Of a DNA stretch of 64,000 bases, positions 39,988 to 60,657 are shown piece after piece. How positions within the stretch are numbered: position 1 is the first letter of the stretch; every line of letters begins with the position of its first letter. Made by a program: the position numbers and the translations under genes. The DNA comes from Candidatus Binatia bacterium (GTDB lineage Bacteria > Desulfobacterota > Binatia > UBA9968 > CAXXLF01). Location of the stretch: positions 1,184,001-1,248,000 of the forward strand of contig CAXXLF010000002.1 of NCBI GenBank assembly GCA_963664015.2, read 5' to 3'. The notes under the pieces were generated by a model, which did no database searches, was not told the DNA's origin, and was given only the letters and a program-made list of their open reading frames with translations.

Positions 39988-40406
39988 CTACCAAAACTTC
40001 CACCAACTAGGTTTGTTCCTTCCACATCCCTTGTATTTCTTCTTCACGCATTCACGGGCAAGTTCTTGTGCGGCAGAGATGTCGGTGGGGGTCATCAGTT
40101 TCGCAATAATGTCTCTGTTTTTGGATGCGCTCTTAGATTTCCCAGATGATACGGCAATATTTGCCCACATATGGGCATAGACATAGTCCTGTAAAACACC
40201 TTGTCCCGTGTGGTACATCAAACCCAGATTGAACTGGGCATCGGCATATCCCTGTTCCGCAAGGGGTGTCCATTCACGCAGAGCGGTTGCGTAGTCACCA
40301 CTTTGGGCAGCAGTTAGACCCTTTTGGAAATCAGCACTCCAACTCATCCCGTAATCCCAAGAAGCAGGGCAATCGTCAGGCAGATGGTGGCGGTCAGGTT
40401 TCTCAT
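39988..40406 (-). CDS. Sel1-repeat protein A (1 repeat, GRNKPSWWKFW tail); signal peptide frameshifted
   Basis: MRNLTATICLTIALLLGITG* is out of frame with MSWSADFQKG...ARECVKKKYKGC. Confidence 0.8.
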
Positions 40407-40460
40407 AGGGAAAAGAGTTACACAGAATGGGGGATTTGGGTAGTCAGAATGAGATTATAC

Positions 40461-41708
40461 TCAACACCCTTTGTATTTCTTACGGACGCATTCACGGGCA
40501 AGGTCTTGTGTTTTTTCAAGTTGGGATGGGGTCAATAACTTCGCAACCAAATCTCTCACCTTCTCCCCTCCCTCATATCCATTAGATGCGGCAATATTCC
40601 CCCACATATGGGCATAGACATAGTCCTGGATGACACCTCGTCCCATGCCGTACATCACACCCAGATTGGACTGGGCAACGGCAAGCCCCTGCTTGGCAGC
40701 AAGTCGGTACCACTTCACCGCAGTCTTATAGTTCTGTGGAACACCTTGTCCCTTGGCGTACATCCAACCCAGATTGAACTGAGCCTCGGCATCCCCCTGT
40801 TCGGCAGCAAGTCTGTACCACTTCAGTGCAGTCTTGTAGTCCTGTGGAACACCCTCTCCTTTGCGGTACATCCAACCCAGATTGTTCTGGGCATCGGCAT
40901 CCCCCTGTTCGGCAGAAAGCGTGTACCACTTCACCGCAGCCCTATAGTCCTTTGGCACATTTTGTCCTTTTGCGTACATCAAACCCAGATTGTACTGGGC
41001 ATCGGCATTCCCCTGTTCGGCAGAAAGTCGGTACCACTTCACCGCAGTCTTATAATCCTGTGGGACACCTCGTCCTTTATCGTACATCACACCCAGATTA
41101 TACTGGGCAATGGCAAGCCCCTGTTCGGCAGCAAGTCTGAGCCACTTCACCGCAGTCTTATAGTCCGGTGGAACACCTTGTCCCTTGGCGTACATCAAAC
41201 CCAGATTGGACTGGGCATCGGCATCCCCCTGTTCGGCAGAAAGCGTGTACCACTTCACCGCAGCCCTATAGTCCTTTGGCACACCTTGTCCTTTTGCGTA
41301 CATAAAACCCAGATTGTACTGGGCATCGGCATTCCCCTGTTCGGCAGAAAGTCGGAACCACTTCACCGCAGTCTTATAGTTCTGTGGAACACCTTGTCCC
41401 TTGGCGTACATCCAACCCAGATTGAACTGAGCCTCGGCATCCCCCTGTTCGGCAGCAAGTCGGTACCACTTCACCGCAGTCTTATAGTTCTGTGGAACAC
41501 CCTCTCCTTTGTCGTACATCCAACCCACATTGTACTGGGCCTCGGCATATCCCTGTTCGGCAAGGGGTGTCCATTCACGCAGAGCAGTTGCGTAGTCTTT
41601 CTTGTTGTACGCATCCCATCCCTTCTGGAAGTCAGCACTCCACGACATCCCCGCACTTCCAAGAAGCACGGCAATGGTCAGGCAGATGGTGGCGGTCAGA
41701 CGTTTCAC
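40461..41708 (-). CDS. Secreted Sel1-repeat protein B (9 repeats)
   Basis: Signal peptide, nine 36-aa AQxNLGxMYxxGxGVPQDYxxAxKW units and ARECVRKKYKGC cap. Confidence 0.93.
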   Translation of the reverse strand: MKRLTATICLTIAVLLGSAGMSWSADFQKGWDAYNKKDYATALREWTPLAEQGYAEAQYNVGWMYDKGEGVPQNYKTAVKWYRLAAEQGDAEAQFNLGWMYAKGQGVPQNYKTAVKWFRLSAEQGNADAQYNLGFMYAKGQGVPKDYRAAVKWYTLSAEQGDADAQSNLGLMYAKGQGVPPDYKTAVKWLRLAAEQGLAIAQYNLGVMYDKGRGVPQDYKTAVKWYRLSAEQGNADAQYNLGLMYAKGQNVPKDYRAAVKWYTLSAEQGDADAQNNLGWMYRKGEGVPQDYKTALKWYRLAAEQGDAEAQFNLGWMYAKGQGVPQNYKTAVKWYRLAAKQGLAVAQSNLGVMYGMGRGVIQDYVYAHMWGNIAASNGYEGGEKVRDLVAKLLTPSQLEKTQDLARECVRKKYKGC

Positions 41709-41762
41709 AGGGAAAAGAGTTACACAGAATGGGGGATTTGGGTAGTCAGAATTGAATTATAC

Positions 41763-41910
41763 TCAACACCCTTTGCATTTCTTACGGACGCACTCACGGG
41801 CAAGTCTCTGTGCTTCTGCGATTTGGGTAGGGGTCATTTGTTTCGCAACCATGTCTTGCAACTTCATTCCCTTCTTACTCCCATTGGACGCACCTAGGTT
41901 TCCCCACATA
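41763..41910 (-). pseudogene. Sel1 gene C-terminal remnant
   Basis: MWGNLGASNGSKKGMKLQDMVAKQMTPTQIAEAQRLARECVRKKCKGC*; cut off 15 bp from the tRNA-Ser 3' end. Confidence 0.85.
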
Positions 41911-41925
41911 AAGGTTGGGAAGTCG

Positions 41926-42016
41926 TGGCAGAGGGGGAGGGATTCGAACCCCCGTTACCCAATGGGCAACCTTGATTTCGAGTCAAGCGCCTTCAAGCGG
42001 GCTCGGCCACCTCTCC
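41926..42016 (-). tRNA. tRNA-Ser(CGA), possibly degenerate
   Basis: GGAGAGG acceptor, CTTGA-CTCGAAA-TCAAG anticodon arm, long variable arm, TTCGAAT T loop and GCCA end. One A-C acceptor mismatch and no GG in the D loop. Confidence 0.75.
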
Positions 42017-42165
42017 CCAATGAAATTGACAACTCCCAGCTTTGTGTAAATCAAATCTATCATTCTATCTTATATTTGATAACACTAAAGGCAGAAGGCT
42101 TACTACCGATAGAACCAACCAAATAATATGAATAGTAGTAGTAATAAAATGGAGGGATTAGAAGG

Positions 42166-43332
42166 ATGATAAGCAGCAGGACTGTGGCCGTCTTGGTGAT
42201 TTTAATATTATCCGGAGTCACTTTGAGTTTCGGGGAATCTATCTATGTTTCTCATAGATTAGAAAATTTGGTCCCTAAGCCAGAAGGAAGTAGACGTGCA
42301 ACGAATCGACATGCAATGATTCCCTTACCAGAAGTTCCATTCAATGTTGATCGACGAATTTTATCTCATAACCGACCGGCTCGTGAGTATGACAAGCCCT
42401 ACCACGGACCTATGATTGATATGCACGTCCACCTAAAATCTAGGTTCCGTAAGCAAACACCCCTCAGAGCTTTGGGTGAGGTTATTGATGGAATTCGCGA
42501 AGCAGGAATAGACCTAGCGATTGTAACGCCTACACCCAATGAGGGACGAAGAAGAGGTGGAAACGAAAAACACCGCTTATACAGAAAGTTACTTAAAGAA
42601 CTCGGTGAGGGAACGATCAAGCTTATGTGCTGCGGCAACTATATAGGTCAATGGATCCATAATGCTTATTACGAGACCTATACAAAGAATAGTTTGTATT
42701 CACTTCTACAGAGAATCAACATGGATCTTGATAGCGGATTATACATTGGTGTCGGTGAGTTGGGGTTATATCATTTCAACAAGAGTGGAAGACAAATGAC
42801 TATTCGATACCCACCAAATTTTGAACCATTTGTGAAAGTAGTAGAAACAATCGCAAATAAGGGGTACTGGATCCTACTGCATGCAGAAACCGTTGATCCA
42901 AATGGAGTATCCTATGAAGAAACGTTTTTCTCTGGCATTGAGCTACTTTATAAACGAATTCCAAATCTCAAATTAATTATTGCCCACACGTCGACCACTA
43001 ATCCTGACAATGTGCGCAGCATGCTCCATCAGTATCCAAATCTCATGATAGATTTTAAGATTGTTAAAAAACTAAAATACTGGTGGTACACAGAACCTGT
43101 GAATAACGCAAATAGAGAATTACATGAGGATTGGGCTAATCTATTTGAGTCAATGCCTAAACGATTTATGGTAGGTACTGATAGGAAATTTTATCGCCGT
43201 CGCATGAATGCTAAAAAATACATAAGAAAAAATAACCGGTTGAGAAATATACTAGGGACATTGAATTCGAATGCCGCACAATTGATTGCTTACGGAAATG
43301 CTAAAAGATTATTTAGTAAAGCTAATCCTTGA
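42166..43332 (+). CDS. Secreted amidohydrolase/TatD-like TIM-barrel protein (AT-rich)
   Basis: Signal peptide, IDMHVH, GVGELG, LLHAE, IIAH and FMVGTD. Confidence 0.8.
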   Translation: MISSRTVAVLVILILSGVTLSFGESIYVSHRLENLVPKPEGSRRATNRHAMIPLPEVPFNVDRRILSHNRPAREYDKPYHGPMIDMHVHLKSRFRKQTPLRALGEVIDGIREAGIDLAIVTPTPNEGRRRGGNEKHRLYRKLLKELGEGTIKLMCCGNYIGQWIHNAYYETYTKNSLYSLLQRINMDLDSGLYIGVGELGLYHFNKSGRQMTIRYPPNFEPFVKVVETIANKGYWILLHAETVDPNGVSYEETFFSGIELLYKRIPNLKLIIAHTSTTNPDNVRSMLHQYPNLMIDFKIVKKLKYWWYTEPVNNANRELHEDWANLFESMPKRFMVGTDRKFYRRRMNAKKYIRKNNRLRNILGTLNSNAAQLIAYGNAKRLFSKANP

Positions 43333-43416
43333 ACTTGAGAATAGAGTGGTAATAGACAGGCCGTGGACCAGCTGAACGATGTGGAAAAGGTTAAAACTGA
43401 GGATCAGCCTCAGAGT

Positions 43417-43436
43417 GGTCACAAAACGGTCACAAA
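43417..43436. repeat. Tandem GGTCACAAA direct repeat (integrase arm-type site-like)
   Basis: GGTCACAAAacGGTCACAAA, preceded by the hairpin CTGAGG-atcag-CCTCAG. Confidence 0.45.
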
Positions 43437-43555
43437 CCGATTGGAGAGAGAGTCAGACTATGTCTAAGGCACTCTGAAAGTGTCTCTATGAGGAGATTTG
43501 GAGGTTTGGGGAGGGGTTCTATGGGACTGCGAGGATGGATTATGAGGGGGTTTTC

Positions 43556-44265
43556 TCAACACCCCTTGTAGTTCTTCTTCACGCATTCACGGGCAAGTCT
43601 CTGTGCGGTTTCAATTTGGGATGGGTTCATCCGTTTGGCAATGATGTCTCTGTTTTTAGATGCGTCCTTACTGTCCGCCGATGTTGCGGCGATGTTGTAC
43701 CACATATGGGCTTGAACATAGTCTTGCGGTACACCCTGACCTTCACCATACATGTACCCCAGATTGTACTGGGCAAGGGCATGCCCCTGTCCGGCAGCAA
43801 GTCTGAACCACTTCACCGCAGTCTTATAGTCCTGTGGAACACCCTCTCCTTTGTCGTACATCCAACCCACATTGTACTGGGCCTTGGCAAATCCCTGGTC
43901 GGCAGCAAGTCTGAACCACTTCAGTGTAGTCTTGTAGTCCTGTGGAACACCCTCTCCTTTGCCGTACATCCAACCCAGATTGTTCTGGGCATCGGCATCC
44001 CCCTGTTCGGCAGCAAGTCTGTACCACTTCAGTGCAGTCTTGTAGTCCTGTGGAACACCCTCTCTTTTGCGGTACATCCAACCCAGATTGTTCTGGGCAT
44101 CGGCATCCCCCTGTTCGGCAAGGGATTTCCATTCACGCAGAGCGGTTGCGTAGTCACCACTTTGGAGAGCAGTTAGACCCTTTTGGAAATCAGCACTCCA
44201 ACTCATCCCGTAATCCCAAGAAGCACGGCAATCGTCAGGTAGATGGTGGCGGTCATGTTTCTCAT
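43556..44265 (-). CDS. Sel1-repeat protein C (4 repeats); signal peptide frameshifted as in gene A
   Basis: MRNMTATIYLTIAVLLGITG* precedes MSWSADF... in another frame; ends ARECVKKNYKGC. Confidence 0.82.
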
Positions 44266-44319
44266 AGGGAAAAGAGTTACATAGAATGGGGGATTTGGGT
44301 AGTCAGAATTGAATTATAC

Positions 44320-44364
44320 TCAACACCCTTTGTATTTCTTACGTACGCATTCACGGGCAAGTTT
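44320..44364 (-). pseudogene. Sel1 C-terminal remnant (KLARECVRKKYKGC*)
   Basis: 45 bp matching the 3' ends of the intact paralogues. Confidence 0.8.
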
Positions 44365-44407
44365 CTAGAACTTCAGTGATTTGAAGCAAAACACACATTC
44401 CTAACTA

Positions 44408-45046
44408 TTATCTCAACCCTAGGACTTTTTCCCTCATCGCCTTTCGTTCCTCATCGTTAATGAGGGATTTTTCGTACATATCTTCTATGCGTTGAAGTTC
44501 CGTTTCTTGTCCCGAGGTTTCTTCCACTACCTTGTCCTCGGCTTCGGGCTCAATTGCCCACGACTTCCAAAGTGACGCCAGCGCCACTTGCAAGGGGGAG
44601 AGCGCCGGAACTTGCCTCGGTGTTTGTGATTCTCCATCAGATTTAGCGGGGATATCAATTCCCAACTTGGCAATCACATCTTTCAATTCCCTCTTATCCA
44701 CATCTCTGCCGATGAAACGACACAGTTGATCATCAAAAGAAGACGCACTGGCACAAGAAACAGCGTGGTAACCTTTGGAAATAAGTTCTTTGATATACAA
44801 TTTGTTATAAATAAAACCAAATACCAGATTATTCAAAAAAACAAACACTGGTTCGTTCGGTGCTAAGTTGGAAACAACCGCCCCGGTAATACAGGATAAA
44901 AAGGCGACAATTGCCGCCCACTTCCAATCACGACGGACAACCATCGGAAGGAAACTCCAAAATAGTGCGGTATAAGAAAACCCTACTGGCGCAGATTTTA
45001 CCTCTCCCGTGTTGTCGTTTTTAAAGGTGATTACAGCACTTGCCAT
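44408..45046 (-). CDS. Membrane protein, HrgC/DUF2628-like N-terminus plus C-terminal SHOCT domain
   Basis: KSAPVGFSYTALFWSFLPMVVRRDW...YNKLYIKELISKGY; ELQRIEDMYEKSLINDEERKAMREKVL. Confidence 0.7.
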   Translation of the reverse strand: MASAVITFKNDNTGEVKSAPVGFSYTALFWSFLPMVVRRDWKWAAIVAFLSCITGAVVSNLAPNEPVFVFLNNLVFGFIYNKLYIKELISKGYHAVSCASASSFDDQLCRFIGRDVDKRELKDVIAKLGIDIPAKSDGESQTPRQVPALSPLQVALASLWKSWAIEPEAEDKVVEETSGQETELQRIEDMYEKSLINDEERKAMREKVLGLR

Positions 45047-45104
45047 TTTTTCCTTTCTGAAGGTTAAGTTGCCTACTTATTTCCCACTATTTATCTTAAA
45101 AAGA

Positions 45105-45146
45105 GCAATCGTCAGGCAGATGGTGGCGAGGGTACGTTTCATAGGG
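45105..45146 (-). pseudogene. Sel1 gene N-terminal remnant (MKRTLATICLTIA)
   Basis: CCCTATGAAACGTACCCTCGCCACCATCTGCCTGACGATTGC matches the paralogue starts, then diverges. Confidence 0.78.
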
Positions 45147-45242
45147 AGAGTCTGACAAAAGGCGGGGGATTAAGAAAGAGAAAACTTAATTTCCCTATCG
45201 CGGACTCATGTAATTCAATAATCCGCATACTTTGAATAATAT

Positions 45243-45500
45243 TTAAAACTGGAAAACTAAGTTATTGATGTTCTTAGAAGGTCTAGTTCTTCCACCCATG
45301 TTGGTGCCGCAATGTCCGCACACCATAATGTCTCTTAAAATGTAGAAGTGAGTAGGTCTGTTTACTTGTCCCTTCCGTTTCAAGTGACTCACTCGTCGTT
45401 GCTGGACATTGTGGTAGACAGTCTTGTCAACCAACCTTGGACATGAGACTTCCGCAGGTTCCTCTGTCTTAGAATCTGTAAACACATATCTGCCGTTATA
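45243..45500 (-). pseudogene. Large serine recombinase internal fragment (recombinase domain end plus zinc ribbon)
   Basis: YNGRYVF...CPRLVDKTVYHNVQQRR...YILRDIMVCGHCGTNMGG. Confidence 0.65.
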
Positions 45501-45941
45501 GTATATGTTGCTCGACGTGCCTATTGTAGTGGTAAATGCGAATGCACTTCCAGCAGTCGAGTATCCAAGACAACTCGTCGTTTTTGAAACATCCACGATC
45601 CCTTGGATCGGATAACCTGATCCTCGCTACGTCCGACTGCATATAAACTTGTTCTTCCTGTTTCCGTGGTCCGGTAAACGACGAATTTTGATCGTACCGA
45701 TGCAGCATTACCTTGAAATTCAATCTGTATATTAGATACAAGATGTAGCCGCCTAGCTGTGTCAAGCACGTAGTTGGGGACCAGATCCATCCTTTTCACA
45801 AACTCGTTCCTTGTGAGTTTCATTACGTAATCGTCGATACCGCCGAGTTCTTTGCTTTCAAACAGCATCTCGTACTCTGATGTCGCAGTAAATAGGCCAG
45901 TCCATTCCCTGATTTGTCCTTCGTCGAGCAACTGAGCGGCT
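45424..45941. repeat. 518-bp direct repeat, copy 1 (5'-truncated oxygenase beta-subunit gene 45521-45941)
   Basis: Matches 52794-53311 at an offset of 7370 with 7 substitutions. Confidence 0.95.
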
Positions 45942-45998
45942 TGCCTTCGGCGCCTTATGAAGCCTTATGCCCCTCTTGTAATCGTAGGCATGAATACC

Positions 45999-47717
45999 TT
46001 AATCCTTCTGCTCAAGCCCCAAACGCATACCTAGAAGGCGACTGGCGAGAACGACGAGGAGAATAAGGAAGACGGTGAAAACGCCGATAATGGCGGCCTG
46101 TTCCAGATTGCCCTCCGGAATGTAATCGAGCATCAGAAGGGAGAGGGTTTTCGTCTGATGGGTAGCCAGGAAAACAACCGAAGATACATCGCGCACCGCC
46201 GCGATGAATAGAATTAGCCCTACGGCCATCAGGGTCGGATTCAAAAGCGGCAACTGGATACGCCGAAAGGTGGAAGTCCAGGACGCCCCTGAAACCGCAG
46301 AAGCCTCCTCCAATTCACTGCTGATCTGCATGACCCCCGCCTTGACGATTTGGATCCCGACGGGCATCTCTTTGATGATGATAGCGAGGATGAGCACAAA
46401 GAGCGTGCCGTAGATGACCCTGAGGATACTACCCGATCCCAGAACTGCCCAGAGAAGGCCCAGACTCAGTAAAATCCCGGGCAGCGCCCAGGGCAACCAC
46501 GAAAGGAGGTCCATTAGCCCACGACCGGTAAAGCGGACCCGCACGATGCAGTAACTGACCAGCGCATAAAAGGTAACGCCCACCGCACTAGCCCCCACCC
46601 CAAGGACAAGGGTGTTCCATAGCGACCGCATGAAAGTCGGATCATCCACGGCTTCGATCCAGTGCCTCGTCGTCCATGTAGATTCCAAGTTGAAAAAGCC
46701 AAAGACCTCCATAAAGGTCCCCAGGAACAGAGCGCTCAAGGGTAAAAGAACCATGATCAGGATGAAGAGAAGGCATATGGAGAAAGTCAGCCAGCGCCAG
46801 GGGCCCAGGCTTAAAGTTCGGGACACATAACCTCGGCCGGTGATGGTGGTGTACTCCCTCCCGTGAAGAAGCACCCTCTGAAGCCATATCAAGACAAAAA
46901 TAACCACGAGAAAGATGCTTGACAGGGCCGTGGCCCGACCATAGAGGGGAGGCTCCCAGTTGATATAGTCGAAAATTTTGGTCGGCACTACGAAGAGCCC
47001 CGCCGGGATTCCTAACACCAGTTCAATCTCAAGTGACTCCAGGCTCTTGATAAAGCCCAGGATCGTGGAAGCCAGGATTGCCGGGGCCAGGAGCGGGACC
47101 GTGATACGCAACAGGGTTCCTAACTTGTTACTCCCGGAGGTTAGAGCGGCCTCTTCCAGGGCCGCATCCATGGCTTTGAAGGCCGGTGTCATCAACAGAA
47201 ACCGTATGGAGGTACTGAAGGCCAGGTGACACCAGACAATGCCCCAGTAAGAGAAAATGTCAAAGGGCGCCCTGGAGAGGCCGAAGATGCCTACGAGAAA
47301 CTTATTGAGTACCCCATTATGAGGATCCAAGAGGAGGATCCACCCCATGGTCATGGGCAACAGGGGCAGAAAAAACCCCAACCAAAGTACCAATTCCAGG
47401 AAACCCCTGAAGGGTGTATCGGTCCGGGTGACGACCCAGACAAAGAAAATGGCCAGAACGGTGGTAATGACTATCCGGACAACGGCTAAGCTAAAGGTAT
47501 TGGCCAGGACCAAGGGGAGGGCTACATCACTAAAGGCTGCAACCCACCCTTGGATACCCCAGGCAACCGGTTGTCCCGGCCGAGTAATAGTAAAACTTTT
47601 GAGGAAAATGAGACTGACAGGATAGAGCGTCAGGAGGGCCATCAGCACCATTAAGAGGGGTAAGAATACCCTTACCCAGGATGGCCCTGACCCTCGCCTA
47701 AACCCCGCCAAAAACAT
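45999..47717 (-). CDS. ABC transporter permease (FbpB-like, two TM domains)
   Basis: Two EAA loops: LEEAALTSGS and LEEASAVSGA. Confidence 0.9.
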   Translation of the reverse strand: MFLAGFRRGSGPSWVRVFLPLLMVLMALLTLYPVSLIFLKSFTITRPGQPVAWGIQGWVAAFSDVALPLVLANTFSLAVVRIVITTVLAIFFVWVVTRTDTPFRGFLELVLWLGFFLPLLPMTMGWILLLDPHNGVLNKFLVGIFGLSRAPFDIFSYWGIVWCHLAFSTSIRFLLMTPAFKAMDAALEEAALTSGSNKLGTLLRITVPLLAPAILASTILGFIKSLESLEIELVLGIPAGLFVVPTKIFDYINWEPPLYGRATALSSIFLVVIFVLIWLQRVLLHGREYTTITGRGYVSRTLSLGPWRWLTFSICLLFILIMVLLPLSALFLGTFMEVFGFFNLESTWTTRHWIEAVDDPTFMRSLWNTLVLGVGASAVGVTFYALVSYCIVRVRFTGRGLMDLLSWLPWALPGILLSLGLLWAVLGSGSILRVIYGTLFVLILAIIIKEMPVGIQIVKAGVMQISSELEEASAVSGASWTSTFRRIQLPLLNPTLMAVGLILFIAAVRDVSSVVFLATHQTKTLSLLMLDYIPEGNLEQAAIIGVFTVFLILLVVLASRLLGMRLGLEQKD

Positions 47718-48865: not shown

Positions 48866-48979
48866 TATTCTACCCTCCTCATTAATATTTGCCTCCAGAA
48901 CCAGCGGGGGTCCGCCAGTCCCAGTGCAGTTAATTTAAAAACACCATCATTTCATTCGCTTTGTTTTAGAAACTTCTCC

Positions 48980-52638: not shown

Positions 52639-52793
52639 TGATTATCCATCTCCTCCGCAAATGCCACCCACCTGACCGTAGAAATGCTTAAGTCCATAAG
52701 AGAATTCCCAAAACACTTTTGAGGGCACAGTATCGACTCTCTGCCTTAAGTGATTTTCGTCTATTTCACGCTTATATTACACCATTTCAAAGA

Positions 52794-53311
52794 TTGTCAA
52801 CCAACCTTGGACATGAGACTTCCGCAGGTTCCTCTGTCTTAGAATCTGTAAACACATATCTGCCGTTATAGTATGTGTTGCTCGACGTGCCTATTGTAGT
52901 GGTAAATGCGAATGCACTTCCAGCAGTCGAGTATCCAAGACAACTCGTCGTTTTTGAAACATCCACAATCCCTTGAATCGGATAACCTGATCCTCGCTAC
53001 GTCCGACTGCATACAAACTTGTTCTTCCTGTTTCCGTGGTCCGGTAAACGACGAATTTTGATCGTACCGATGCAGCATTACCTTGAAATTCAATCCGTAT
53101 ATTAGATACAAGATGTAGCCGCCTAGCTGTGTCAAGCACGTAGTTGGGGACCAGATTCATCCTTTTCACAAGCTCGTTCCTTGTGAGTTTCATTACGTAA
53201 TCGTCGATACCGCCGAGTTCTTTGCTTTCAAACAGCATCTCGTACTCTGATGTCGCAGTAAATAGGCCAGTCCATTCCCTGATTTGTCCTTCGTCGAGCA
53301 ACTGAGCGGCT
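52794..53311. repeat. 518-bp direct repeat, copy 2
   Basis: Matches 45424-45941. Confidence 0.95.
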
Positions 53312-53370
53312 CTAAAAAGCAACTCTTCTACAGCGCGATAGGGGGACAGGTCTGATCGTGTCTTTGCCAT
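52891..53370 (-). CDS. Aromatic ring-hydroxylating oxygenase beta subunit (NTF2 fold)
   Basis: LLFRAAQLLDE...WTGLF, RRLHLVSN, SKFVVYRT and FQKRRVVLD. Confidence 0.82.
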   Translation of the reverse strand: MAKTRSDLSPYRAVEELLFRAAQLLDEGQIREWTGLFTATSEYEMLFESKELGGIDDYVMKLTRNELVKRMNLVPNYVLDTARRLHLVSNIRIEFQGNAASVRSKFVVYRTTETGRTSLYAVGRSEDQVIRFKGLWMFQKRRVVLDTRLLEVHSHLPLQ

Positions 53371-53599
53371 GGTAAAACTTGCTAGGTTCAAGTGCGTACA
53401 GTTGACCCAGCGACTTATAGTTCTGATCCGCAGGCCGTGTCAAGGTCTAGTAAGCTGACGTTGGATTATACCAGGTGGCATTTTACTTTTTGATATATTA
53501 CAGTACTCAAGTTTTCACCTTTGGTACGTAGATTTGTTAGAGATTAAACACCTGGTGCCAGGGGGACTCAGTAGATATAGTATGAATGGAGGGCGTCTT

Positions 53600-54829
53600 A
53601 TGGGTGATCGGAGTCAAGGAATCGGACCCGAGAGGGTCCCTAATCTACCACGGACCCATTTCATTGATACTCGGATTTACACCGACCCAAACCTCTTCGA
53701 AGAGGAACGCTCAAGGATCTTTGCCAACGTTTGGAATTTTGTGGGTCATGAGAGTGAGATACCGAGGCCCGGGTGCTTCCGGACAGTGACCATCGCGGGT
53801 TTCCCCATACTGGTAGTTCGCCAAGAGGACGGTGGCGTCCGGGGTTTTTACAATATTTGCAGGCATCGTCAGGCACAGGTGGTGAGATCATGTAGTGGGC
53901 AGAGCAAGTCATTCCAGTGCTTCTATCATTTGTGGACCTATGGATTAGATGGACGGCTTTTGGGTGTCACGTTACCAGAGGGCTACAAGGATACAGGTTT
54001 CAACGTTGCTGATTTTGGATTGAGGGAGATCCGAGTGGAGTTGGTAGCGGGCTTAATCTTTGTATGTCTCAGTGACGAGACCGTAACTCTTCGGGAGTAT
54101 TTGGGTGAAGTTGCTTCGGTACTCGAAAAGTATGCGCCCCCTGAGGGGTTTGAGGTGTTTCACTACCACCAGGCAGAGATCAAGACCAATTGGAAGCTTT
54201 TTTTCGAGAACAATTCGGAAAGATATCATACGGCGCTACATTGGGCTCACAGAAACCGGGCGAATTGGGGTAAGCCCGGCGGACCTGCCGATGGGTGGAT
54301 ATTTGTGGGTAATGGCCACAATTATACCCCGTTTAATCGTGGAAAACACATGGGGCGAAGCAAGAATATTGGCCTTGAGGAAAGGGATCGATTTACTTTA
54401 CCGGGGCACCAGGGGAATGTTACGAGCTCTCATCATCTGTTCCCAGATGTGCTCCTAGTCACGATTTCAACAGTCCTAAGAATTGATCATCTCATACCTT
54501 TAAGTCCAGGTCGCACGTTAGTCGAGTGGCGCGGACTTGGAGTGAAAGGCGAGGCAGCGGATGTACGTGCTCTCCGAGTTAAACATCATAATGAGTTTTG
54601 GGGCTATTCAGGCTCTAATTTGCCCGAGGATATTACCGCTGCAGAATCCCAATGGCCAATGATGGCATCAGGAGCGGTAAGGTATAGTATCGTGGCGAGA
54701 GAAGGAAATGCCTTCAGCGACGAATCCTTGCGACACTACTATAAAGAGTGGAGTCGCCGTATGGGGCGGCAATATTGGGACCCCTTTGGAGAGATTGATG
54801 GCGCAGCTACAGTTGGGTCAGAAGTGTAA
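53600..54829 (+). CDS. Rieske aromatic ring-hydroxylating oxygenase alpha subunit
   Basis: NICRHR and CFYHLWTY Rieske ligands; NWKLFFENNSERYH..LH and ED mononuclear iron ligands. Confidence 0.92.
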   Translation: MGDRSQGIGPERVPNLPRTHFIDTRIYTDPNLFEEERSRIFANVWNFVGHESEIPRPGCFRTVTIAGFPILVVRQEDGGVRGFYNICRHRQAQVVRSCSGQSKSFQCFYHLWTYGLDGRLLGVTLPEGYKDTGFNVADFGLREIRVELVAGLIFVCLSDETVTLREYLGEVASVLEKYAPPEGFEVFHYHQAEIKTNWKLFFENNSERYHTALHWAHRNRANWGKPGGPADGWIFVGNGHNYTPFNRGKHMGRSKNIGLEERDRFTLPGHQGNVTSSHHLFPDVLLVTISTVLRIDHLIPLSPGRTLVEWRGLGVKGEAADVRALRVKHHNEFWGYSGSNLPEDITAAESQWPMMASGAVRYSIVAREGNAFSDESLRHYYKEWSRRMGRQYWDPFGEIDGAATVGSEV

Positions 54830-54911
54830 CTCAAAAATGACTTGGCTACTCTAACTCAAGTATTGAATCTCCATTCTTGTAGAGGCACGCTCGAGTGGGT
54901 TACGACCACCA

Positions 54912-55544
54912 CTACCAAAACTTCCACCAACTAGGTTTGTTCCTTCCACATCCCTTGTATTTCTTCTTCACACATTCACGGGCAAGTTTTTGTGCTTTTT
55001 CAAGTTGGGATGGAGTCATTTTATTCGCAATCCTATCTCTCAACTGCCCCGCTTGCTCACTTCCATTAGACGAAGCAAGGTTCCCCCACATATGGGCATA
55101 GACATAGTCCCGTAGAACACCTCGTCCTTGGAGGTACATCCCACTCAGAAATAACTGGGCATTAGCATACCCCTGTTCGGCAGCAAGTCTGTACCACTTC
55201 GCCGCAGTCTTATAGTCCGGGAGACCGCCTTGTCCAAGATAGTACATCAAACCCAGATTGAACTGAGCATCGGTATTCCCCTGTTCGGCAGCAAGTCTGT
55301 ACCACTTCAGTGCAGTTTCATAGTCCTGTGGAACACCTTCTCCGTTGCGGTACATAAAACCCAGATTGTACTGGGCATCGGCATCCCCCTGTTCAGCAAG
55401 AGGTGTCCATTCACGCAGAGCAGTTGCGTAGTCCCAACTCTGGTATGCAGTTAGACCCTTTGGGAAATCAGCACTCCACGACATCCCCGCACTTCCAAGA
55501 AGCACGGCAATCGTCAGGCAGAGTGTGGCGGTCAGGTTTTTCAT
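54912..55544 (-). CDS. Secreted Sel1-repeat protein D (3 repeats, GRNKPSWWKFW tail)
   Basis: Intact signal peptide, Sel1 units and conserved cap. Confidence 0.92.
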   Translation of the reverse strand: MKNLTATLCLTIAVLLGSAGMSWSADFPKGLTAYQSWDYATALREWTPLAEQGDADAQYNLGFMYRNGEGVPQDYETALKWYRLAAEQGNTDAQFNLGLMYYLGQGGLPDYKTAAKWYRLAAEQGYANAQLFLSGMYLQGRGVLRDYVYAHMWGNLASSNGSEQAGQLRDRIANKMTPSQLEKAQKLARECVKKKYKGCGRNKPSWWKFW

Positions 55545-55598
55545 AGGGAAAAGATTTACATAAAATGGGGATTTGGGGTAGTCAGAATTGAATTATAC

Positions 55599-56201
55599 TC
55601 AACACCCTTTGTATTTCTTACGTACGCATTCACGGGCAAGGTCTTGTGCTTTTTCAATTTGGGATGGAGTCATTTTCTTCGCAACAAAATCTCTCAACCC
55701 CCCCGCTCCCTCATATCCATTAGATACGGCAATGTTCGACCACATATGGGCATAGACATAGTCCTGTAAAACACCTTGTCCCTTGTAGTACATCACACCC
55801 AGATTGGACTGGGCATCGGCATCCCGCTGTTCAGCAGCAAGTCTGTACCACTTCAGTGTAGTCTTGTAGTCCTGTGGAACACCCTCTCCTTTGCCGTACA
55901 TCCAACCCAGACTGTTCTGGGCATCGGCATCCCCCTGTTCGGCAGCAAGTCTGTACCACTTCAATGCAGTTTCATAGTCCTGTGGGACACCTCGTCCTTC
56001 GTGGTACATCAAACCCAGATTGAACTGGGCCTTCGCATCCCCCTGTTCGGCAAGGGGTGTCCATTCACGCAGAGCAGTTGCGTAGTCTTTCTTTTCGTAA
56101 GCGACGAATCCTTTTTGATAGTCATCCGCGTGGGCCGTCACTCCCACGAGCAAGGCGATACCGAGGATTGCGAAAAACAGTTTATGGTGACTTTTGACCA
56201 T
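55599..56201 (-). CDS. Secreted Sel1-repeat protein E (3 repeats, different signal peptide)
   Basis: MVKSHHKLFFAILGIALLVGVTAHA leader fused to the family body. Confidence 0.9.
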   Translation of the reverse strand: MVKSHHKLFFAILGIALLVGVTAHADDYQKGFVAYEKKDYATALREWTPLAEQGDAKAQFNLGLMYHEGRGVPQDYETALKWYRLAAEQGDADAQNSLGWMYGKGEGVPQDYKTTLKWYRLAAEQRDADAQSNLGVMYYKGQGVLQDYVYAHMWSNIAVSNGYEGAGGLRDFVAKKMTPSQIEKAQDLARECVRKKYKGC

Positions 56202-56208
56202 TTCGCCA

Positions 56209-56288
56209 CCATCCTCCTACGTCACAGCCATGCTGTCAAATGCCGGGATTGACGTCCTATGGCTTAGCGTTATAATCCGCGCTGGGGG
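56209..56288. repeat. 80-bp direct repeat, copy 1, with divergent promoter-like signals
   Basis: Matches 61451-61530. Plus strand TTGACG-N16-TATAAT; minus strand TTGACA and AGGAGG. Confidence 0.85.
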
Positions 56289-56629
56289 CCTGCCCACCCC
56301 TAGCGCGAATAAATCCGCCTGGTGGCAATACATATTAGGGTAGGCCCGAAACAATTATCGATGTTGGAACAAATATTACGCAGAGGGCAAAAGAGAATGA
56401 GCAAAAACGCAAAATATGAAATCTCCAAAGTCACCCGGGGTTGCCCTGGTCCGCCCAATGATGCTTTCGGAAATCCGCCGCTAGTCGATCGTAGTTTGTC
56501 AATCTCTACGTACGAAAGTCGTTCTTCCCCCTCTTTCTGCCTTTTAAGATATGAAAATACTTGAGTGTTTCTCCATTGGTTTCCTTTGCTCGCACTTATA
56601 GTATATGCAAGAAACGGATAGGGTGTTGG

Positions 56630-59011
56630 ATGGATCAGATAACCTCTGCGAATTGCTGGAAAGACTTTGAGCAATCCCTTGAATCTCTCGGGGATAAGGA
56701 GAAAGGTGACGCATTTGAAGAACTGACCCACCTTCATCTTCTAACTGACCCAACGTTTTCCACCAAGCTTAAGAATGTTTGGCACCACTCCGTTGTTCCT
56801 CAGCTAATAGTCGACGAACTTGGGTTGCAACGACCTGAGATCGGTGTGGATCTTGTAGCACAAGACCGAGACGGCAAATACTGGGCAATTCAGTGCAAGT
56901 TTCATCAGGACAGAACTAGGAATGTTAGATATGAAGAACTAAACAGTTTCTTCAGTCTTACTGAACGGGATAAAACGTATCAAAAACTCTCTCATCGACT
57001 GGTATGTACCTCAGCAAATGGGGTCAGTCCTGCAGTCAATAAGGTGCATGGAGAAAAACTTGGTTATCTCACCTCCTTAGAATTCTCAAAACTCGGTCAG
57101 GAGGAGTTTGATGCCTTTAGAAAGTTTCTCGCCGGAGGTCATCCTGTACCGGAACCCAAGGTTCCACGAAAGCACCAAGGAGTTGCATTGGACAAATGCG
57201 AGACCTTCTTCAAAGACCCAAACAATACCCGTGGAAAACTTATTCACCCATGCGGGTCGGGTAAAAGTCTCATTGGATACTGGGCCTCTCAGAGACTGAA
57301 CGCAAAGACCGTCCTGATTGCCGTCCCTAGTCTTGCATTGGTTCGTCAGACGTTGGGTGATTGGACACGAGAGGCAGTAGCAAACGGAATCAATATGGAC
57401 TGGATCGCCGTTTGTAGTGATGATGATGTTTCGAATTCTGATGACCCTGCAATGCAATCTGTCGATCTTGGAATTGAAGTTGATACAGATCCAGAGATCA
57501 TTTCTAGTTTTCTTCGAAAACCATCAACAGGAACGAAGATAGTTATTACGACATACCAGAGCGCCCTTGCAGTTAGTGAGAGTGCCCAGAAGGCAGGGAC
57601 CGTATTCGACCTTGGTGTCTACGATGAAGCACATAAGACCGTTGGACAAAAAGACAAAGCATTCGCTCATCTTCTCTATGATAAGAATGTCGAGGTCAGG
57701 AAACGGGTTTTTATGACTGCTACAGAACGTCAGTTCCAAGGGAACTCTGACGAATACCTATCGATGAATGATGAAGGTATCTATGGAACGATTATTGATG
57801 AACTATCATTCAAGGCGGCGTTGGCACAAGATCCACCAATTGTCAGCGACTATAAGATCGTTTCAACGATTGTTACAGAATCAGAAATAAAAGAACTTAT
57901 AGATAATAACAAGTTTGTTAAATGCGATGGAAAAGAGTGGACGATTGAAGGTGATGCATCGACCTTAACGTCACTGATTGTACTTAGAAAATTGATCAGA
58001 GACCGTGATCTTAAACATGTTGTCTCCTTTCATAGCAGCATCAAACGATCCCGCGATTTTCAGAAACTTAATTCAGATTTTAATAAAGGGGATGGTACCT
58101 TTGATGATCTGACTTCTTTTCATGTTTCGGGGAAAGATAGTACCGGAATTCGAGCGCAGGAGCTTGAGCGGTTTGTAAATGTTGAACCGAGTTTGATTAC
58201 CAATGCACGGTGTTTAACGGAAGGTGTTGATGTTCCGGCAATTGATGCCGTTCTCTTTGCGGATCCAAAGCAGAGTAAAATTGATATTGTTCAGGCAGCG
58301 GGACGTGCATTGCGGAGATTCGATGGTAAGGACTTCGGGTATATCATCGTCCCCGTAGTTTTGGATGAAGAGTCAGAAGACCCAAGTGATGATGCCTTCA
58401 AGCAGATCATTACAGTAATATCTGCACTTGGGATGAGTGATGACCGGATCATTGATGAGTTTAGGACAATCGCAAATGGGGGGAATCCTGGTAAGGAAAG
58501 AATAAATGATATCGTTCTCCCTGAGATCTACCGAGCGAAGTTTGCGCACTTGATTTCAAATATTGGAATTCGAATCTGGGATCGTTTGAGTTTTGGTTGG
58601 GCAAAGGGGTTTGAAAAATTAAAGAGGTATGTGGAACAGAACGATAATCCCCGAGTTCACAACCGTTACACCGATGAGGATGGGTTCAAATTAGGTGGTT
58701 GGGTTAGCAATCGGCGCATGGAGTACAGAAAAGGAAAGTTGGCACGGGATCGTATTCAACAATTAGAATCGATTAAAGGTTGGGTCTGGGATCCGATCGA
58801 AGCGGACTTTCAAGAGGGTTTGGAGAAACTAAAGAGGTATGTGGAACAGAACGATAATCCCCGAGTTCCTACTAGTTACACCGATGAGGATGGGTTCAAA
58901 TTAGGTACTTGGATTAACAATCGGCGCATGGAGTACAAAAACGGACAGTTGGAACCGGATCGTATTCAACAATTAGAATCGATTAAAGGTTGGGTCTGGA
59001 AGTCGCGGTAG
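56630..59011 (+). CDS. Mrr-like nuclease - SF2 DEAH helicase - two helicase-associated (HA) domains
   Basis: GVDLVA..YWAIQCK, HPCGSGKS, DEAH, TATER, LTEGVDVP, QAAGRALR and two 70-aa W-rich repeats (210-bp duplication). Confidence 0.85.
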   Translation: MDQITSANCWKDFEQSLESLGDKEKGDAFEELTHLHLLTDPTFSTKLKNVWHHSVVPQLIVDELGLQRPEIGVDLVAQDRDGKYWAIQCKFHQDRTRNVRYEELNSFFSLTERDKTYQKLSHRLVCTSANGVSPAVNKVHGEKLGYLTSLEFSKLGQEEFDAFRKFLAGGHPVPEPKVPRKHQGVALDKCETFFKDPNNTRGKLIHPCGSGKSLIGYWASQRLNAKTVLIAVPSLALVRQTLGDWTREAVANGINMDWIAVCSDDDVSNSDDPAMQSVDLGIEVDTDPEIISSFLRKPSTGTKIVITTYQSALAVSESAQKAGTVFDLGVYDEAHKTVGQKDKAFAHLLYDKNVEVRKRVFMTATERQFQGNSDEYLSMNDEGIYGTIIDELSFKAALAQDPPIVSDYKIVSTIVTESEIKELIDNNKFVKCDGKEWTIEGDASTLTSLIVLRKLIRDRDLKHVVSFHSSIKRSRDFQKLNSDFNKGDGTFDDLTSFHVSGKDSTGIRAQELERFVNVEPSLITNARCLTEGVDVPAIDAVLFADPKQSKIDIVQAAGRALRRFDGKDFGYIIVPVVLDEESEDPSDDAFKQIITVISALGMSDDRIIDEFRTIANGGNPGKERINDIVLPEIYRAKFAHLISNIGIRIWDRLSFGWAKGFEKLKRYVEQNDNPRVHNRYTDEDGFKLGGWVSNRRMEYRKGKLARDRIQQLESIKGWVWDPIEADFQEGLEKLKRYVEQNDNPRVPTSYTDEDGFKLGTWINNRRMEYKNGQLEPDRIQQLESIKGWVWKSR

Positions 59012-59203
59012 GCATCCAATCCTAATGAAAGTCTCAGACACCCAAGAGTTCGTTAGGAGAATATTCTATTCCCACAGCGAATAGGTTAATGCGTACTTGG
59101 GTGACTTTAGACGCTACAAACGCAATGCCAACTAGCAAATACGCTATAAGTGCGACGCCATAGATTGAACCAGTTAGAAACCACTCCAAAATACCCTGCA
59201 AGC

Positions 59204-59694
59204 TCAACACCCTTTGTATTTCTTACGGACGCATTCACGGGCAAGTTTATGTGCTTCAGCGATTTGGGCAGGGGTCATCAGTTTCGCAATAATGTCTCTG
59301 TTTTTGGATGCGCTCTTAGATTTCCCAGATGATGCGGCAATATTCGTCCACATATGGGCATAGACATAGTCCTGTGGAAGACCTTGTCCTTCTTTATACA
59401 TCCAACCCAGATTGAGCTGGGCAACGGCAATTCCCTGTTCGGCAGCCAGTCTGTACCACTTCACCGCAGTCTTATAGTCCTGGAGAACACCTAGTCCTTC
59501 ATCGTACATCCAACCCAGATTGTACTGGGCCTTGGCACCCCCCTGTTCGGCAGCCAGTCTGTACCACTTCACCGCAGCCTTATAATTCTGTCGAATGCGG
59601 CACGTCCCTTCTGGAAGTCAGCACTCCACGACATCCCCGCACTTCCAAGAAGCACGGCAAGGGTCAGGCAGATGGTGGCGGTCAGGTTTCTCAT
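59204..59694 (-). pseudogene. Sel1-repeat gene F with an out-of-frame internal deletion at ~59590
   Basis: MRNLTATICLTLAVLLGSAGMSWSADFQKGRAAFD is joined out of frame to QNYKAAVKWYRL...; two repeats and the cap remain. Confidence 0.85.
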
Positions 59695-59748
59695 AGGGGA
59701 AAGAGTTACATAGAATGGGGGATTTGGGTAGACAGAATGGAATTCTAC

Positions 59749-60564
59749 TCAACACCCCTTGTAGTTTTTCTTCACGCAATCACGGGCAAGGTCTTGTGCT
59801 TTTTCAAGTTGGGATGGGGTCATTTTCTTCGCAACCAAATCTCTCAACTCCCCCCCTCTCTCATATCCATTAGATGAAGCAAGGTTCCCCCACATATGAG
59901 CATAGACAGAGTCCAGTGGAACACCTAGTCCTTGGTGGTACATCACACCCAGATTGAACTGGGCAGTGGCATATCCCTGTTCGGCTGCAAGTCTGTACCA
60001 CTTCACCGCAGTCTTATAGTCCTGTGGAACACCTTCTCCCCTGCGGTACATCAAACCCAGATTGTTCTGGGCCTTGGCATGTCCCTGTCCGGCAGCAAGT
60101 CTGTACCACTTCACCGCAGTCTTATAGTCCTGTGGAACACCTTCTCCATTATCGTACATCAAACCCAGATTGTACTGGGCATTGGCAAATCCCTGTTTGG
60201 CAGCAAGTGTCCACCACTTCACCGCAGTCTTATAGTCCTGTATAACACCTTGTCCCTTGTAGTACATCACACCCAGACTGTACTGGGCAGAGGCCTGCCC
60301 CTGTTCGGCAGCAAGTCGGTACCACTCCACCGCAGTCTCATAGTCCTGTGGAACACCCTCTCCTTTGTCGTACATCAAACCCAGAAAGAGCTGGGCAGCG
60401 GCATCTCCCTGCTCGGCAAGGGGTGTCCATTCACGCAGAGCAGTTGCGTAGTCGCCACTATCGTATGCGGTAACTCCCTTTTGTAAATCAGCACTCCAAC
60501 TCACCCCCGTACTTCCAAGAAACACGGCAATCGTCAGGCAGATGGTGGCGGTCAGGTTTCTCAT
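59749..60564 (-). CDS. Secreted Sel1-repeat protein G (5 repeats)
   Basis: Intact signal peptide, five units and ARDCVKKNYKGC. Confidence 0.93.
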   Translation of the reverse strand: MRNLTATICLTIAVFLGSTGVSWSADLQKGVTAYDSGDYATALREWTPLAEQGDAAAQLFLGLMYDKGEGVPQDYETAVEWYRLAAEQGQASAQYSLGVMYYKGQGVIQDYKTAVKWWTLAAKQGFANAQYNLGLMYDNGEGVPQDYKTAVKWYRLAAGQGHAKAQNNLGLMYRRGEGVPQDYKTAVKWYRLAAEQGYATAQFNLGVMYHQGLGVPLDSVYAHMWGNLASSNGYERGGELRDLVAKKMTPSQLEKAQDLARDCVKKNYKGC

Positions 60565-60618
60565 CGGGAAAAGAGTTACATAGAATGGGGGATTTGGGTA
60601 GTCAGGATGGAGTTCTAC

Positions 60619-60657
60619 TCAACATCCTTTGTATTTCTTACGGACGCATTCACGGGC
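60619..60657 (-). pseudogene. Sel1 C-terminal remnant (ARECVRKKYKGC*)
   Basis: 39 bp matching the paralogue 3' ends. Confidence 0.8.

Follow-up and report, generated by a model that had tools for sequence, protein, structure and literature searches.

The window analysed here, a 64-kb stretch of DNA to whose positions all coordinates refer, carries seven genes and one 5' fragment of a single family, grouped in three arrays on the minus strand (Table 1). Every one of the seven genes matched the Sel1 model PF08238, with scores of 34.3 to 367.1 bits (Pfam gathering cut-off, 30.7 bits) and one to nine stretches per gene. The Sel1 repeat is 36 residues long; at the DNA level, we counted 26 in-register copies of a 108-nt repeat with 61–88% identity to a reference copy, and found tandem-repeat arrays of 108-nt and 324-nt period with 76–87% matches. 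From their sequences, the Sel1-repeat proteins are predicted to be periplasmic or secreted solenoids. Among named NCBIfam models, MerG (NF033786) comes nearest, and the C-terminal part of the family aligns to it; we rejected this identity because the scores, 161.9 bits for the 271-aa protein and 254.7 bits for the 415-aa protein, lie below the curated cut-off of 350.

The six genes headed by the junction described below begin with a nearly invariant signal peptide, MRNLTATICLTIAVLLGSAGVSWSA, directly downstream of the spacer, with likely cleavage before D/E. This peptide resembles the signal peptidase I type, and no lipobox was seen by eye. Three of these six genes are frameshifted; in the one starting at 44265, a 216-aa open reading frame lacking the signal peptide begins at 44206. 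The remaining gene, starting at 56201, has an upstream region unlike that of the family, with a Shine-Dalgarno sequence. The orphan start at 45142 has no cap, and its leader, different from the others though related to them, is of a type found in related genomes.

Table 1. Features of the Sel1 arrays and their surroundings
Feature	Position	Strand	Details
Sel1 gene	39988..40406	-	signal-peptide frameshift shared with gene 44265; end read through to ..GRNKPSWWKFW
Junction copy 6	40407..40499	-	full upstream gene
Sel1 gene, intact, 415 aa	40461..41708	-	GTG start; nine Sel1 stretches; 324-nt higher-order period
Junction copy 5	41709..41801	-	spacer and 152-nt upstream-gene remnant (41763-41914)
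tRNA-Ser(cga)	41926-42016		adjoins remnant of junction copy 5, 12 nt from its end
Sel1 gene, frameshifted	43556..44265	-	GGGG to GGG within signal peptide; type-B cap without spacer
Junction copy 4	44266..44358	-	cap remnant 44320-44358 (possible homology to 44371) and spacer
Orphan 5' fragment	45077..45142	-	MKRTLATICLTIA..; family homology stops near 45105
Large serine recombinase/integrase fragment (zinc-ribbon part)	45243..45596	-	upstream of orphan start; not intact
Sel1 gene, intact, 210 aa	54912..55544	-	cap stop read through to ..GRNKPSWWKFW; array end
Junction copy 3	55545..55637	-	full upstream gene
Sel1 gene, intact, 200 aa	55599..56201	-	different N-terminus (MVKSHHKLFF..); no junction before start
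Sel1 gene, broken	59204..59694	-	deletion/frameshift past codon 35; type-A cap without spacer after
Junction copy 2	59695..59787	-	full upstream gene; TAGAAT variant
Sel1 gene, intact, 271 aa	59749..60564	-	five Sel1 stretches; family signal peptide; type-B cap
Junction copy 1	60565..60657	-	cap remnant 60619-60657 and 54-nt spacer; clean break at G of GCCCGTG
Type I restriction R subunit	62252-64000		

A 93-nt junction at the head of the genes

Our census of this window located six junctions of 93 nt each, all on the minus strand, beginning at the G of GCCCGTG and ending immediately before the start codon, just where an earlier sequence-only reading had placed them. Each consists of a 39-nt coding tail (..ARECVRKKYKGC, stop included), which we call the cap, followed by a 54-nt spacer. 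The cap encodes the conserved C-terminus of the upstream gene (..A-R-E-C-V-R/K-K-x-Y-K-G-C, then the stop), and the spacer is a pyrimidine-rich leader. Motif counts were far above expectation for the first 14 nt of the cap (10 matches versus 0.48 expected), for a 20-nt spacer core (five matches at ≤3 mismatches versus 0.01) and for a 20-nt core of the signal peptide (seven matches versus 0.00); in the sixth spacer core, that of junction copy 3, the C/A run is displaced by 1 nt. The earlier reading had held that such a junction precedes every family-type start, which is true of six of the seven and fails at the orphan start at 45142. Its remark that a Shine-Dalgarno sequence is missing also held: GGAG, GAGG or AGGA occurs at -20 to -4 before none of the seven family starts, whereas 25 of the window's 39 other ORF starts have one.

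At four further caps, those of the gene ends at 39988, 43556, 54912 and 59204, no spacer comes next, and the sequences diverge at the stop or a few bases beyond. A spacer follows five of six type-A caps and one of four type-B caps; in the array of genes 60564 and 59694 the two types have exchanged places.

Similarity between units runs through the junction

In three pairs of junctions, similarity of 84–86% crosses the junction from one gene into the next: 40182-40939 versus 55319-56072 (86% over 762 nt), 40319-41130 versus 59606-60418 (84% over 821 nt) and 41056-41801 versus 59912-60657 (85% over 749 nt). Wherever an upstream gene exists, the similarity between units extends well past the cap into that gene. 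Other segments are closer still, at 92% between 40184-40502 and 44043-44361, which have a frameshift in common, and at 98% between 39983-40071 and 54907-54995. These closer matches point to recent copying. By our reading of the alignment, three of four genes have a type-I 3' region ahead of the spacer, and a type-II 3' region lies at the array end in three of three. Mosaicism among the array copies shows in the four-gamete test, which 322 of 561 pairs of biallelic informative sites failed, and in a PHI-type permutation test (p = 0.001; six sequences and 34 sites from one genome, in an alignment partly within repeats).

Compared pairwise, the six copies had a mean identity of 0.90 in the cap, 0.90 in the spacer and 0.88 in the signal peptide, with 0.70–0.80 in adjacent coding sequence. 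For comparison between genomes we used seven related loci, chosen through the signal-peptide pattern rather than the junction. The spacer is homogeneous inside a genome and diverged among genomes: between window gene 60564 and the gene of one related locus, L004, spacer identities were 0.50 and 0.41, and L004 has its own version of the spacer in two copies at 88%. The same two genes, by comparison, share 0.87 identity in the signal peptide and 0.79 in coding sequence (79–87% for coding sequence overall).

We judge it probable, at roughly 0.7, that the junction is the boundary between adjacent genes in a tandemly amplified family encoding secreted Sel1-repeat proteins, and that recombination between copies has homogenised it; at the same rough probability we attribute the likeness of the junctions to concerted evolution within an array of tandem paralogs. 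The internal 108-nt Sel1 repeats would be the site of unequal homologous recombination that duplicates or deletes units composed of a 3' end, the spacer and the next 5' end, and gene conversion would keep the junctions alike. Arrays of two genes may have been copied blockwise, and the isolated tips of upstream genes would be eroded paralogs, truncated at array edges through deletion or insertion of other DNA. The earlier proposal of a permuted propagating unit fits the 749–821-nt similarity across junctions; its reading of that unit as a cassette does not follow, since unequal recombination of tandem paralogs yields the same pattern.

A possible promoter in the cap and spacer

A second explanation, which we regard as possible but rather doubtful, is that the cap and the first spacer bases contain the promoter of the downstream gene, with a -10 TATAAT directly past the stop. 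An upstream activator or UP-like site would then reach to about GCCCGTG, so that the tips mark the promoter's upstream edge, and truncated copies would retain a tip because tip-less copies fall silent and decay. As had been noticed from the sequence, TATAAT (four junctions) or a TAGAAY variant (TAGAAT in one, TAGAAC in one) follows the stop; in five of six, the TATAAT or TAGAAT begins 2 nt past it, and if transcription began about 7 nt beyond that, the leader would be about 40 nt long. A sigma-70 consensus scan of the minus strand found, however, a -35/-10 pair at 16–18 nt spacing in none of the six junctions, and TAAGAA, which lies 17 nt upstream, agrees with TTGACA at two of six positions when judged by eye. 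Nor is the -10-like hexamer conserved among related genomes: the final T is missing (TAGAAC) in L005 and L006, as in the one remaining window copy, and L004 has TTAGGAAAT.

The behaviour of the cap and spacer between genomes weighs against a promoter as well. Among the window copies, spacer conservation equals that of the best coding parts, as a promoter would predict, but this conservation does not extend to other genomes. The cap is missing before the same leader and signal peptide in five of the seven related loci, including all three with other cargo (L002, L006 and L009), and L004 retains just about 12 nt of it; on the other side, L006 has a lone cap remnant upstream of a gene from outside the family. 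The frameshifted genes (three of six downstream genes are broken) still carry the junction, which is easier to explain by copying than by selection acting on every copy. Promoter selection on the cap and spacer could nevertheless contribute to their conservation.

Breakpoints and a proposed site-specific recombination

The sequence-only reading had also noted that in three cases only the 3' tip of the upstream gene is left, and we found remnants of 39, about 43–52 and about 152 nt at these junctions; an nhmmer search found no family homology upstream of 60657. Remnants in other genomes measure about 12 nt (L004), 28 nt (L006) and 31–44 nt (L005). When the breakpoints were tabulated, as that reading had suggested, those of all six remnants were scattered over about 135 nt, with no single crossover base. 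Two of the window tips had been said to break within about 7 bp of the same position; they lie 4–13 nt apart, and with L005 added, three breaks are confined to about 13 nt near GCCCGTG, which suits a promoter edge (0–13 nt from one position). This clustering of three remnants exceeds what uniform breakage along a gene of 600–1250 nt would give, and it counts against the paralog-array explanation. It may reflect erosion of dead DNA and the small sample (n = 6).

Breaks at one place would also be expected if a recombinase cut in the cap near GCCCGTGAA and excised or inserted a unit of cap, spacer and gene, a scenario that we consider very improbable. Integron gene cassettes form one-way arrays of short units in which boundary sequence is shared between neighbours, and the units here likewise lie all in one orientation, with a boundary split between neighbours. 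The two closest breaks and the serine-recombinase fragment in the island point the same way, as do recombinase-domain fragments that adjoin the leader and signal-peptide module both of L002 and of protein P0017. Unlike in integron cassettes, however, homology runs through the supposed boundary and on into the upstream gene, breakpoints are spread, and the four caps without a spacer diverge only at the stop rather than at GCCCGTG. No attC-like single-strand DNA fold was found in three junctions on both strands (z = +0.43, +0.19, -0.96, -1.75, +0.12 and +0.76), the consensus RNA fold of the junction had -1.67 kcal/mol and no inverted repeat, and plasmid and phage records gave no match to the junction. 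The recombinase that the earlier reading proposed to look for in the island came down to the fragment at 45243-45596; among 57 ORFs compared with Pfam (28 + 29; in 1–36 kb, those of 90 aa or more), none encoded an intact integrase, transposase, recombinase or IntI. With no attC fold in these junctions, no IntI among these ORFs and no fixed crossover base, an integron-like array with its crossover in the cap finds no support.

The leader and signal peptide in related genomes

A scan of genomes other than the source genome found the same signal-peptide DNA with a related leader of about 45 nt in seven of nine loci, and protein searches returned 125 of 131 candidate proteins at E ≤ 10 and at least 174 cluster representatives at E ≤ 0.001. 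By our reading, 22 among the 150 representatives listed have unrelated mature sequences behind MRNLTATICLTIAVLLGSAGVSWSA, with similarity stopping at ..SWSA before D/E. Other cargo comprises a 139-aa protein of no family (L006) and a protein with MORN and trypsin-like parts (L009), and in some chimeras the signal peptide is joined to C-terminal pieces of cytoplasmic proteins (NDUS4, NUBPL/ParA and HATPase_c). Short metagenome contigs are the source of many chimeras, and these may be pseudogenes or result from read-through in gene calling. Judged by sequence, the leader and signal peptide appear to be the deeper conserved piece, shared across the lineage; their presence across genomes and on unrelated mature proteins suggests that they probably serve expression and Sec export.

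The variety of cargo, and a related leader that travels with the signal peptide in seven loci, would also suit a portable promoter and secretion module that is actively moved before or into other genes, with the Sel1 arrays as its commonest carrier. We think this quite unlikely: besides the doubtful contigs, we saw neither terminal repeats nor target duplications nor a linked transposase, and at the nucleotide level the module is 0.87 identical between genomes, much like Sel1 coding sequence (0.79–0.85), so special mobility is unnecessary. Rearrangement in or around the recombination-prone arrays would be the simplest way for the signal peptide to have reached new cargo. A broader and still unlikely proposal is that in one group of uncultured marine bacteria a single leader and signal peptide form a common 'export head' that recombination repeatedly puts on new coding sequence, with the Sel1 arrays as the workshop and the cap remnant as the upstream limit of the travelling piece, either a promoter or a recombination anchor. 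If true, bacteria would have their own counterpart of gene shuffling anchored on a signal peptide, and it would give a lineage-specific secretome of more than 100 protein clusters.

Comparison with known systems

The junction is probably an ordinary outcome of tandem paralog evolution. A unit of 3' end, intergenic region and next 5' end is already described for the lpl cluster of the Staphylococcus aureus nuSa-alpha island, where recombination at a conserved intra-ORF region leads to duplication, deletion, apparent conversion and translocation via circles (Tsuru and Kobayashi, 2008; PMC2568036). The Sel1 arrays likewise consist of same-strand tandem paralogs for exported proteins, have an intra-ORF conserved region able to serve homologous recombination (here the 108-nt repeats), hold the 3' region, intergenic sequence and next 5' region together as a unit, and share their island with type I restriction genes and what is left of an integrase. 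They differ from lpl in offering recombination a varying number of 108-nt Sel1 repeats in place of one central conserved block; in the one genome compared, the 5' and 3' ends are conserved and the repeat number varies. Remnant-only junctions at array edges are a further departure from the lpl model.

The locus is a clean new case of a unit spanning two genes, here probably driven by the DNA of an internal protein repeat. Annotators should take note, since frameshifts disrupt half of the genes that a junction heads, and relatives commonly contain remnants and chimeras. Found on many different proteins in several uncultured genomes, the nearly identical leader and signal peptide define a lineage-specific secretome that can be retrieved with a single short motif, and a shared export leader on many proteins raises a testable question, the origin of new secreted proteins.

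For such a shared head, the closest counterpart among the systems compared is the 'upstream homology box' of OspE, OspF and Elp on the cp32 plasmids of Borrelia burgdorferi, a shared upstream or promoter region with a leader peptide that heads paralogous and also dissimilar exported proteins, lipoproteins on spirochaete prophage plasmids (PMC7002432). Here, by contrast, the leader peptide resembles the signal peptidase I type, the genes are chromosomal and arrayed, and the shared upstream sequence is short, about 45 nt, and diverges between genomes. As in the Borrelia case, one signal peptide with a leader of about 45 nt (seven loci) stands before unrelated mature parts.

Junction copies in arrays of Sel1-repeat genes

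Seven genes encoding Sel1-like-repeat proteins, together with an orphan 5' fragment, lie on the minus strand of the window between 39,988 and 60,657. PF08238 was found by Pfam in all seven genes, with one to nine repeat stretches in each, and at the DNA level a 108-nt period recurs in 26 in-register copies, with tandem arrays of periods 108 and 324 nt. On translation, four genes (named by their starts: 60564, 56201, 55544 and 41708) are intact and three (59694, 44265 and 40406) are frameshifted. An in-frame ATG lies just past the signal-peptide frameshift at 44206 and 40347 (minus strand); translated from it, the ORFs (216 and 119 aa) would encode Sel1 proteins lacking a signal peptide. We rejected phase variation at the signal-peptide G run (GGG, GGGG, GGGGG), as the two copies with this frameshift share 92% identity, indicating a single event, and none of the runs is long. 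At the ends of arrays (39983-40071 and 54907-54995), GGA replaces the TGA stop and produces read-through into ..GRNKPSWWKFW; similar W-rich C-terminal tails occur in metagenome relatives, for example P0050 and P0098.

Coordinates of arrays, upstream-gene remnants and other features in the window
Feature	Position	Strand	Remark
Sel1 array	60564-59204	-	
Sel1 array	56201-54912	-	
Sel1 array	44265-39988	-	interrupted by a plus-strand gene and tRNA-Ser
Upstream-gene remnant, 39 nt	60619-60657	-	
Upstream-gene remnant, about 43-52 nt	44320 to roughly 44371	-	
Upstream-gene remnant, about 152 nt	41763-41914	-	stops 12 nt from tRNA-Ser
Mrr_cat_2 + ResIII + Helicase_C + two HA domains	56561-59011	+	
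YgjP-like metallopeptidase	61560-62255	-	
Type I restriction R subunit	62252 to window end	-	
6S RNA gene, 78.3 bits	1706-1889	-	between zapA and the 5-formyltetrahydrofolate cyclo-ligase gene
RNase Y N-terminal-region ORF	84-749		

A sequence-only reading had described a conserved junction before every family-type start. All six copies it located are present, each of 93 nt: 39 nt coding for the C-terminus of the preceding gene's product (..ARECVRKKYKGC, stop), here called the cap, followed by a 54-nt spacer. However, the rule does not extend to every start, as the orphan start 45142 has a different leader and no cap, and gene 56201 has a different N-terminus and upstream region. Pattern searches gave numbers well beyond chance, with 5 matches to the spacer core (0.01 expected), 10 to the cap start (0.48 expected) and 7 to the signal-peptide core (0.00 expected); four caps have no spacer behind them, with divergence setting in at the stop. 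Other details of that reading were confirmed: the hexamer after the stop reads TATAAT four times, and TAGAAT and TAGAAC once each; a Shine-Dalgarno tetramer at -20 to -4 precedes 0/7 family starts, compared with 25/39 other ORF starts; and in three cases only a tip of the upstream gene is left. An nhmmer search with a 3'-coding-region profile gave zero family homology upstream of 60657 and, upstream of 44359, a single 4.6-bit match within the adjoining gene that we took as chance; we therefore rejected hidden older remnants beyond the two short tips.

Similarity of 84-86% extends over 749-821 nt; it links the 5' part of a gene, across the spacer and the cap, with the final repeats of its upstream neighbour. 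The permuted cassette proposed earlier is thus real as a unit of gene end, spacer and next gene start, but not as an integron-like element. Such a unit probably arose by unequal homologous recombination between internal Sel1 repeats of neighbouring genes, an exchange that is bound to yield units spanning two genes; it would also account for the range in repeat number.

Uniformity within genomes and divergence between them

Mean pairwise identity among the six copies is 0.90 for the cap and for the spacer, 0.88 for the signal-peptide DNA and 0.70-0.80 for adjacent coding sequence. For a between-genome comparison, we set window gene 60564 against an equally long gene in L004, a locus from another genome. 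Identity was 0.87 for the signal-peptide DNA and 0.79 for the coding sequence, and 0.50 and 0.41 for the two spacers. L004 has a spacer version of its own, in two copies that are 88% identical. Because the spacer is uniform within a genome and diverged between genomes, the junction appears to evolve in concert; a non-coding stretch with this distribution is the signature of concerted evolution and not of a deeply conserved site.

Several further observations point to copying between units. The segments 40184-40502 and 44043-44361 are 92% identical over 320 nt and have a frameshift in common, and two array ends are 98% identical over 89 nt. The four-gamete test was failed by 322 of 561 site pairs, with a PHI-type p = 0.001 that is indicative only, coming from six sequences, and two cap alleles are not always paired with the same neighbours. 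We infer that the junction probably belongs to an array of tandem paralogs evolving in concert, in which the unit covers parts of two genes (probability about 0.7).

Breakpoints, folding and recombinases

The earlier reading had suggested that the cap may be a crossover site, noting that two tips break near the same position. A genome scan with a degenerate 24-nt signal-peptide pattern gave nine loci, none with more than one match and all in genomes other than the source; seven (L002 and L004-L009) have the family start and the remaining two are unrelated coding contexts. The related loci come from metagenome-assembled genomes labelled Alphaproteobacteria or Rhodospirillaceae and, being picked by this pattern, sample junctions only before that type of start. 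Three of these loci add remnants, keeping about 31-44 nt of the cap in L005, about 12 nt in L004 and 28 nt in L006, where the remnant stands alone some 600 nt ahead of the family start. The two tips do lie close together, but closeness of two breakpoints out of six is not remarkable, and the six remnants (three in the window, three in other genomes) define no single site, their breakpoints spanning about 135 nt. Most of the remnants are short, which is what erosion of dead DNA would give.

Folding of three junctions on both strands gave DNA z-scores of +0.76 to -1.75, with no attC-like DNA hairpin, and the consensus RNA fold is -1.67 kcal/mol; 13 aligned leaders have no conserved fold. As for an RNA element, no Rfam family matched at E <= 1 in 38-64 kb except tRNA-Ser and a weak overlapping sX4. 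The suggested search for a recombinase elsewhere in the island found no intact one among 57 ORFs scanned with Pfam, and blastn of the junction and signal-peptide DNA had no match in plasmid or phage records, so that we also discarded an origin from either. With breakpoints this dispersed and neither fold, intact recombinase nor plasmid or phage match, an integron-like cassette system recombining in the cap is highly improbable.

Fragments of large-serine-recombinase type adjoin family starts. In the window, the orphan start has an integrase fragment upstream of it, at 45243-45596 (minus strand; phrog_95, E 2.4e-11); at L002 (1746-1960) a recombinase-domain piece abuts the leader, and P0017 is a Sel1 N-terminus fused to the same piece, which has no counterpart in the window. 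A tRNA-like 3' fragment (38844-38901, minus strand), comprising the T arm, acceptor strand and CCA, scores 18.2 bits to RF00005, under the cut-off of 29; the first Sel1 gene is about 1.1 kb away. The fragment may be an attachment-site remnant at the island edge; the window holds no second copy. Between two Sel1 arrays, some 7 kb with UbiD, DHDPS-like, cupin and ABC-transporter genes is flanked by a 518-nt direct repeat (98.6%; 45424-45941 and 52794-53311) that copies part of a ring-hydroxylase beta-subunit gene. Defence-type genes adjoin the arrays within 56561-64000, and GC content drops to 43-46% in two stretches, 42-46 kb and 56-60 kb.

A promoter in the junction

The cap or spacer might instead hold the promoter of the downstream gene, as the -10-like hexamer 2 nt past the stop in five of six copies would suggest. 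However, a consensus scan found no -35/-10 pair on the gene strand of any of the six junctions, leading us to reject a sigma-70 promoter there; in related genomes the hexamer is TAGAAC or absent, five of seven loci lack the cap upstream of the same leader, and half of the downstream genes are broken. We consider this explanation doubtful. Weak 9-of-12 antisense sites (TTCTCA-17-TAGAAT/TAAAAT) overlap four junctions on the plus strand, and sigma-70 site totals are no higher than in shuffles (5 against 8.2 expected; 13 against 9.6).

Elsewhere, an 86-nt repeat (93%; 56203-56288 and 61445-61530) contains TTGACG, 16 nt and TATAAT on the plus strand, and one of its copies immediately precedes the atypical Sel1 gene 56201, facing the Mrr/helicase gene. 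At 33925-34046 (plus strand), between two minus-strand genes, a 41-nt unit is repeated perfectly three times in tandem, each copy containing a full consensus promoter (TTGACA, 17 nt, TATAAT; 100% self-match).

A leader and signal peptide shared across the lineage

Of 131 candidates, 125 matched a 40-residue N-terminal query at E <= 10, and by our own pattern the cap motif also ends at least 25 among the 120 matches listed. A 30-residue query against cluster representatives gave 174 at E <= 0.001. Among the 150 of these listed, 33 have Sel1 repeats (E <= 1e-5), six match other Pfam families instead (NDUS4, DUF4886, trypsin + SH3, MORN, NUBPL/ParA and HATPase_c) and 111, many of them short fragments, have none. 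Reading the sequences, we found a clearly unrelated mature part directly after ..SWSA in 22 of the 150. The same DNA-level head, accompanied by a pyrimidine-rich leader of about 45 nt, precedes a 139-aa protein of no family in L006 and a MORN + trypsin-like protease in L009. Rearrangement in recombination-prone arrays would be the simplest source of such combinations, and some of the chimeras may stem from pseudogenes or from gene-calling errors on short contigs. It is this leader and signal peptide, shared lineage-wide, that deserves further study.

MORN-repeat genes located behind family genes (L002 2349-2621; L004 2868-3572, reverse strand) begin with another conserved leader peptide, MK(Q/R)FL.P..LLT.LFP. 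In L004 the Sel1 gene and the MORN gene each have a cap end and spacer in front of them.

Comparison with known systems

Our literature search found nothing specific on this signal-peptide module or on Sel1 arrays of this kind; it gave as precedents the S. aureus lpl cluster and the Borrelia shared-leader families. The lpl account describes a unit of the same composition, has excised circles as one route to translocation, and places the cluster next to genes for type I restriction and the remnant of an integrase (PMC2568036). Both kinds of neighbour recur in the window, as the type I R subunit at 62252-64000 and the integrase fragment at 45243-45596. A tandem paralog array under concerted evolution is a known kind of arrangement, of which the junction array would be a new example.
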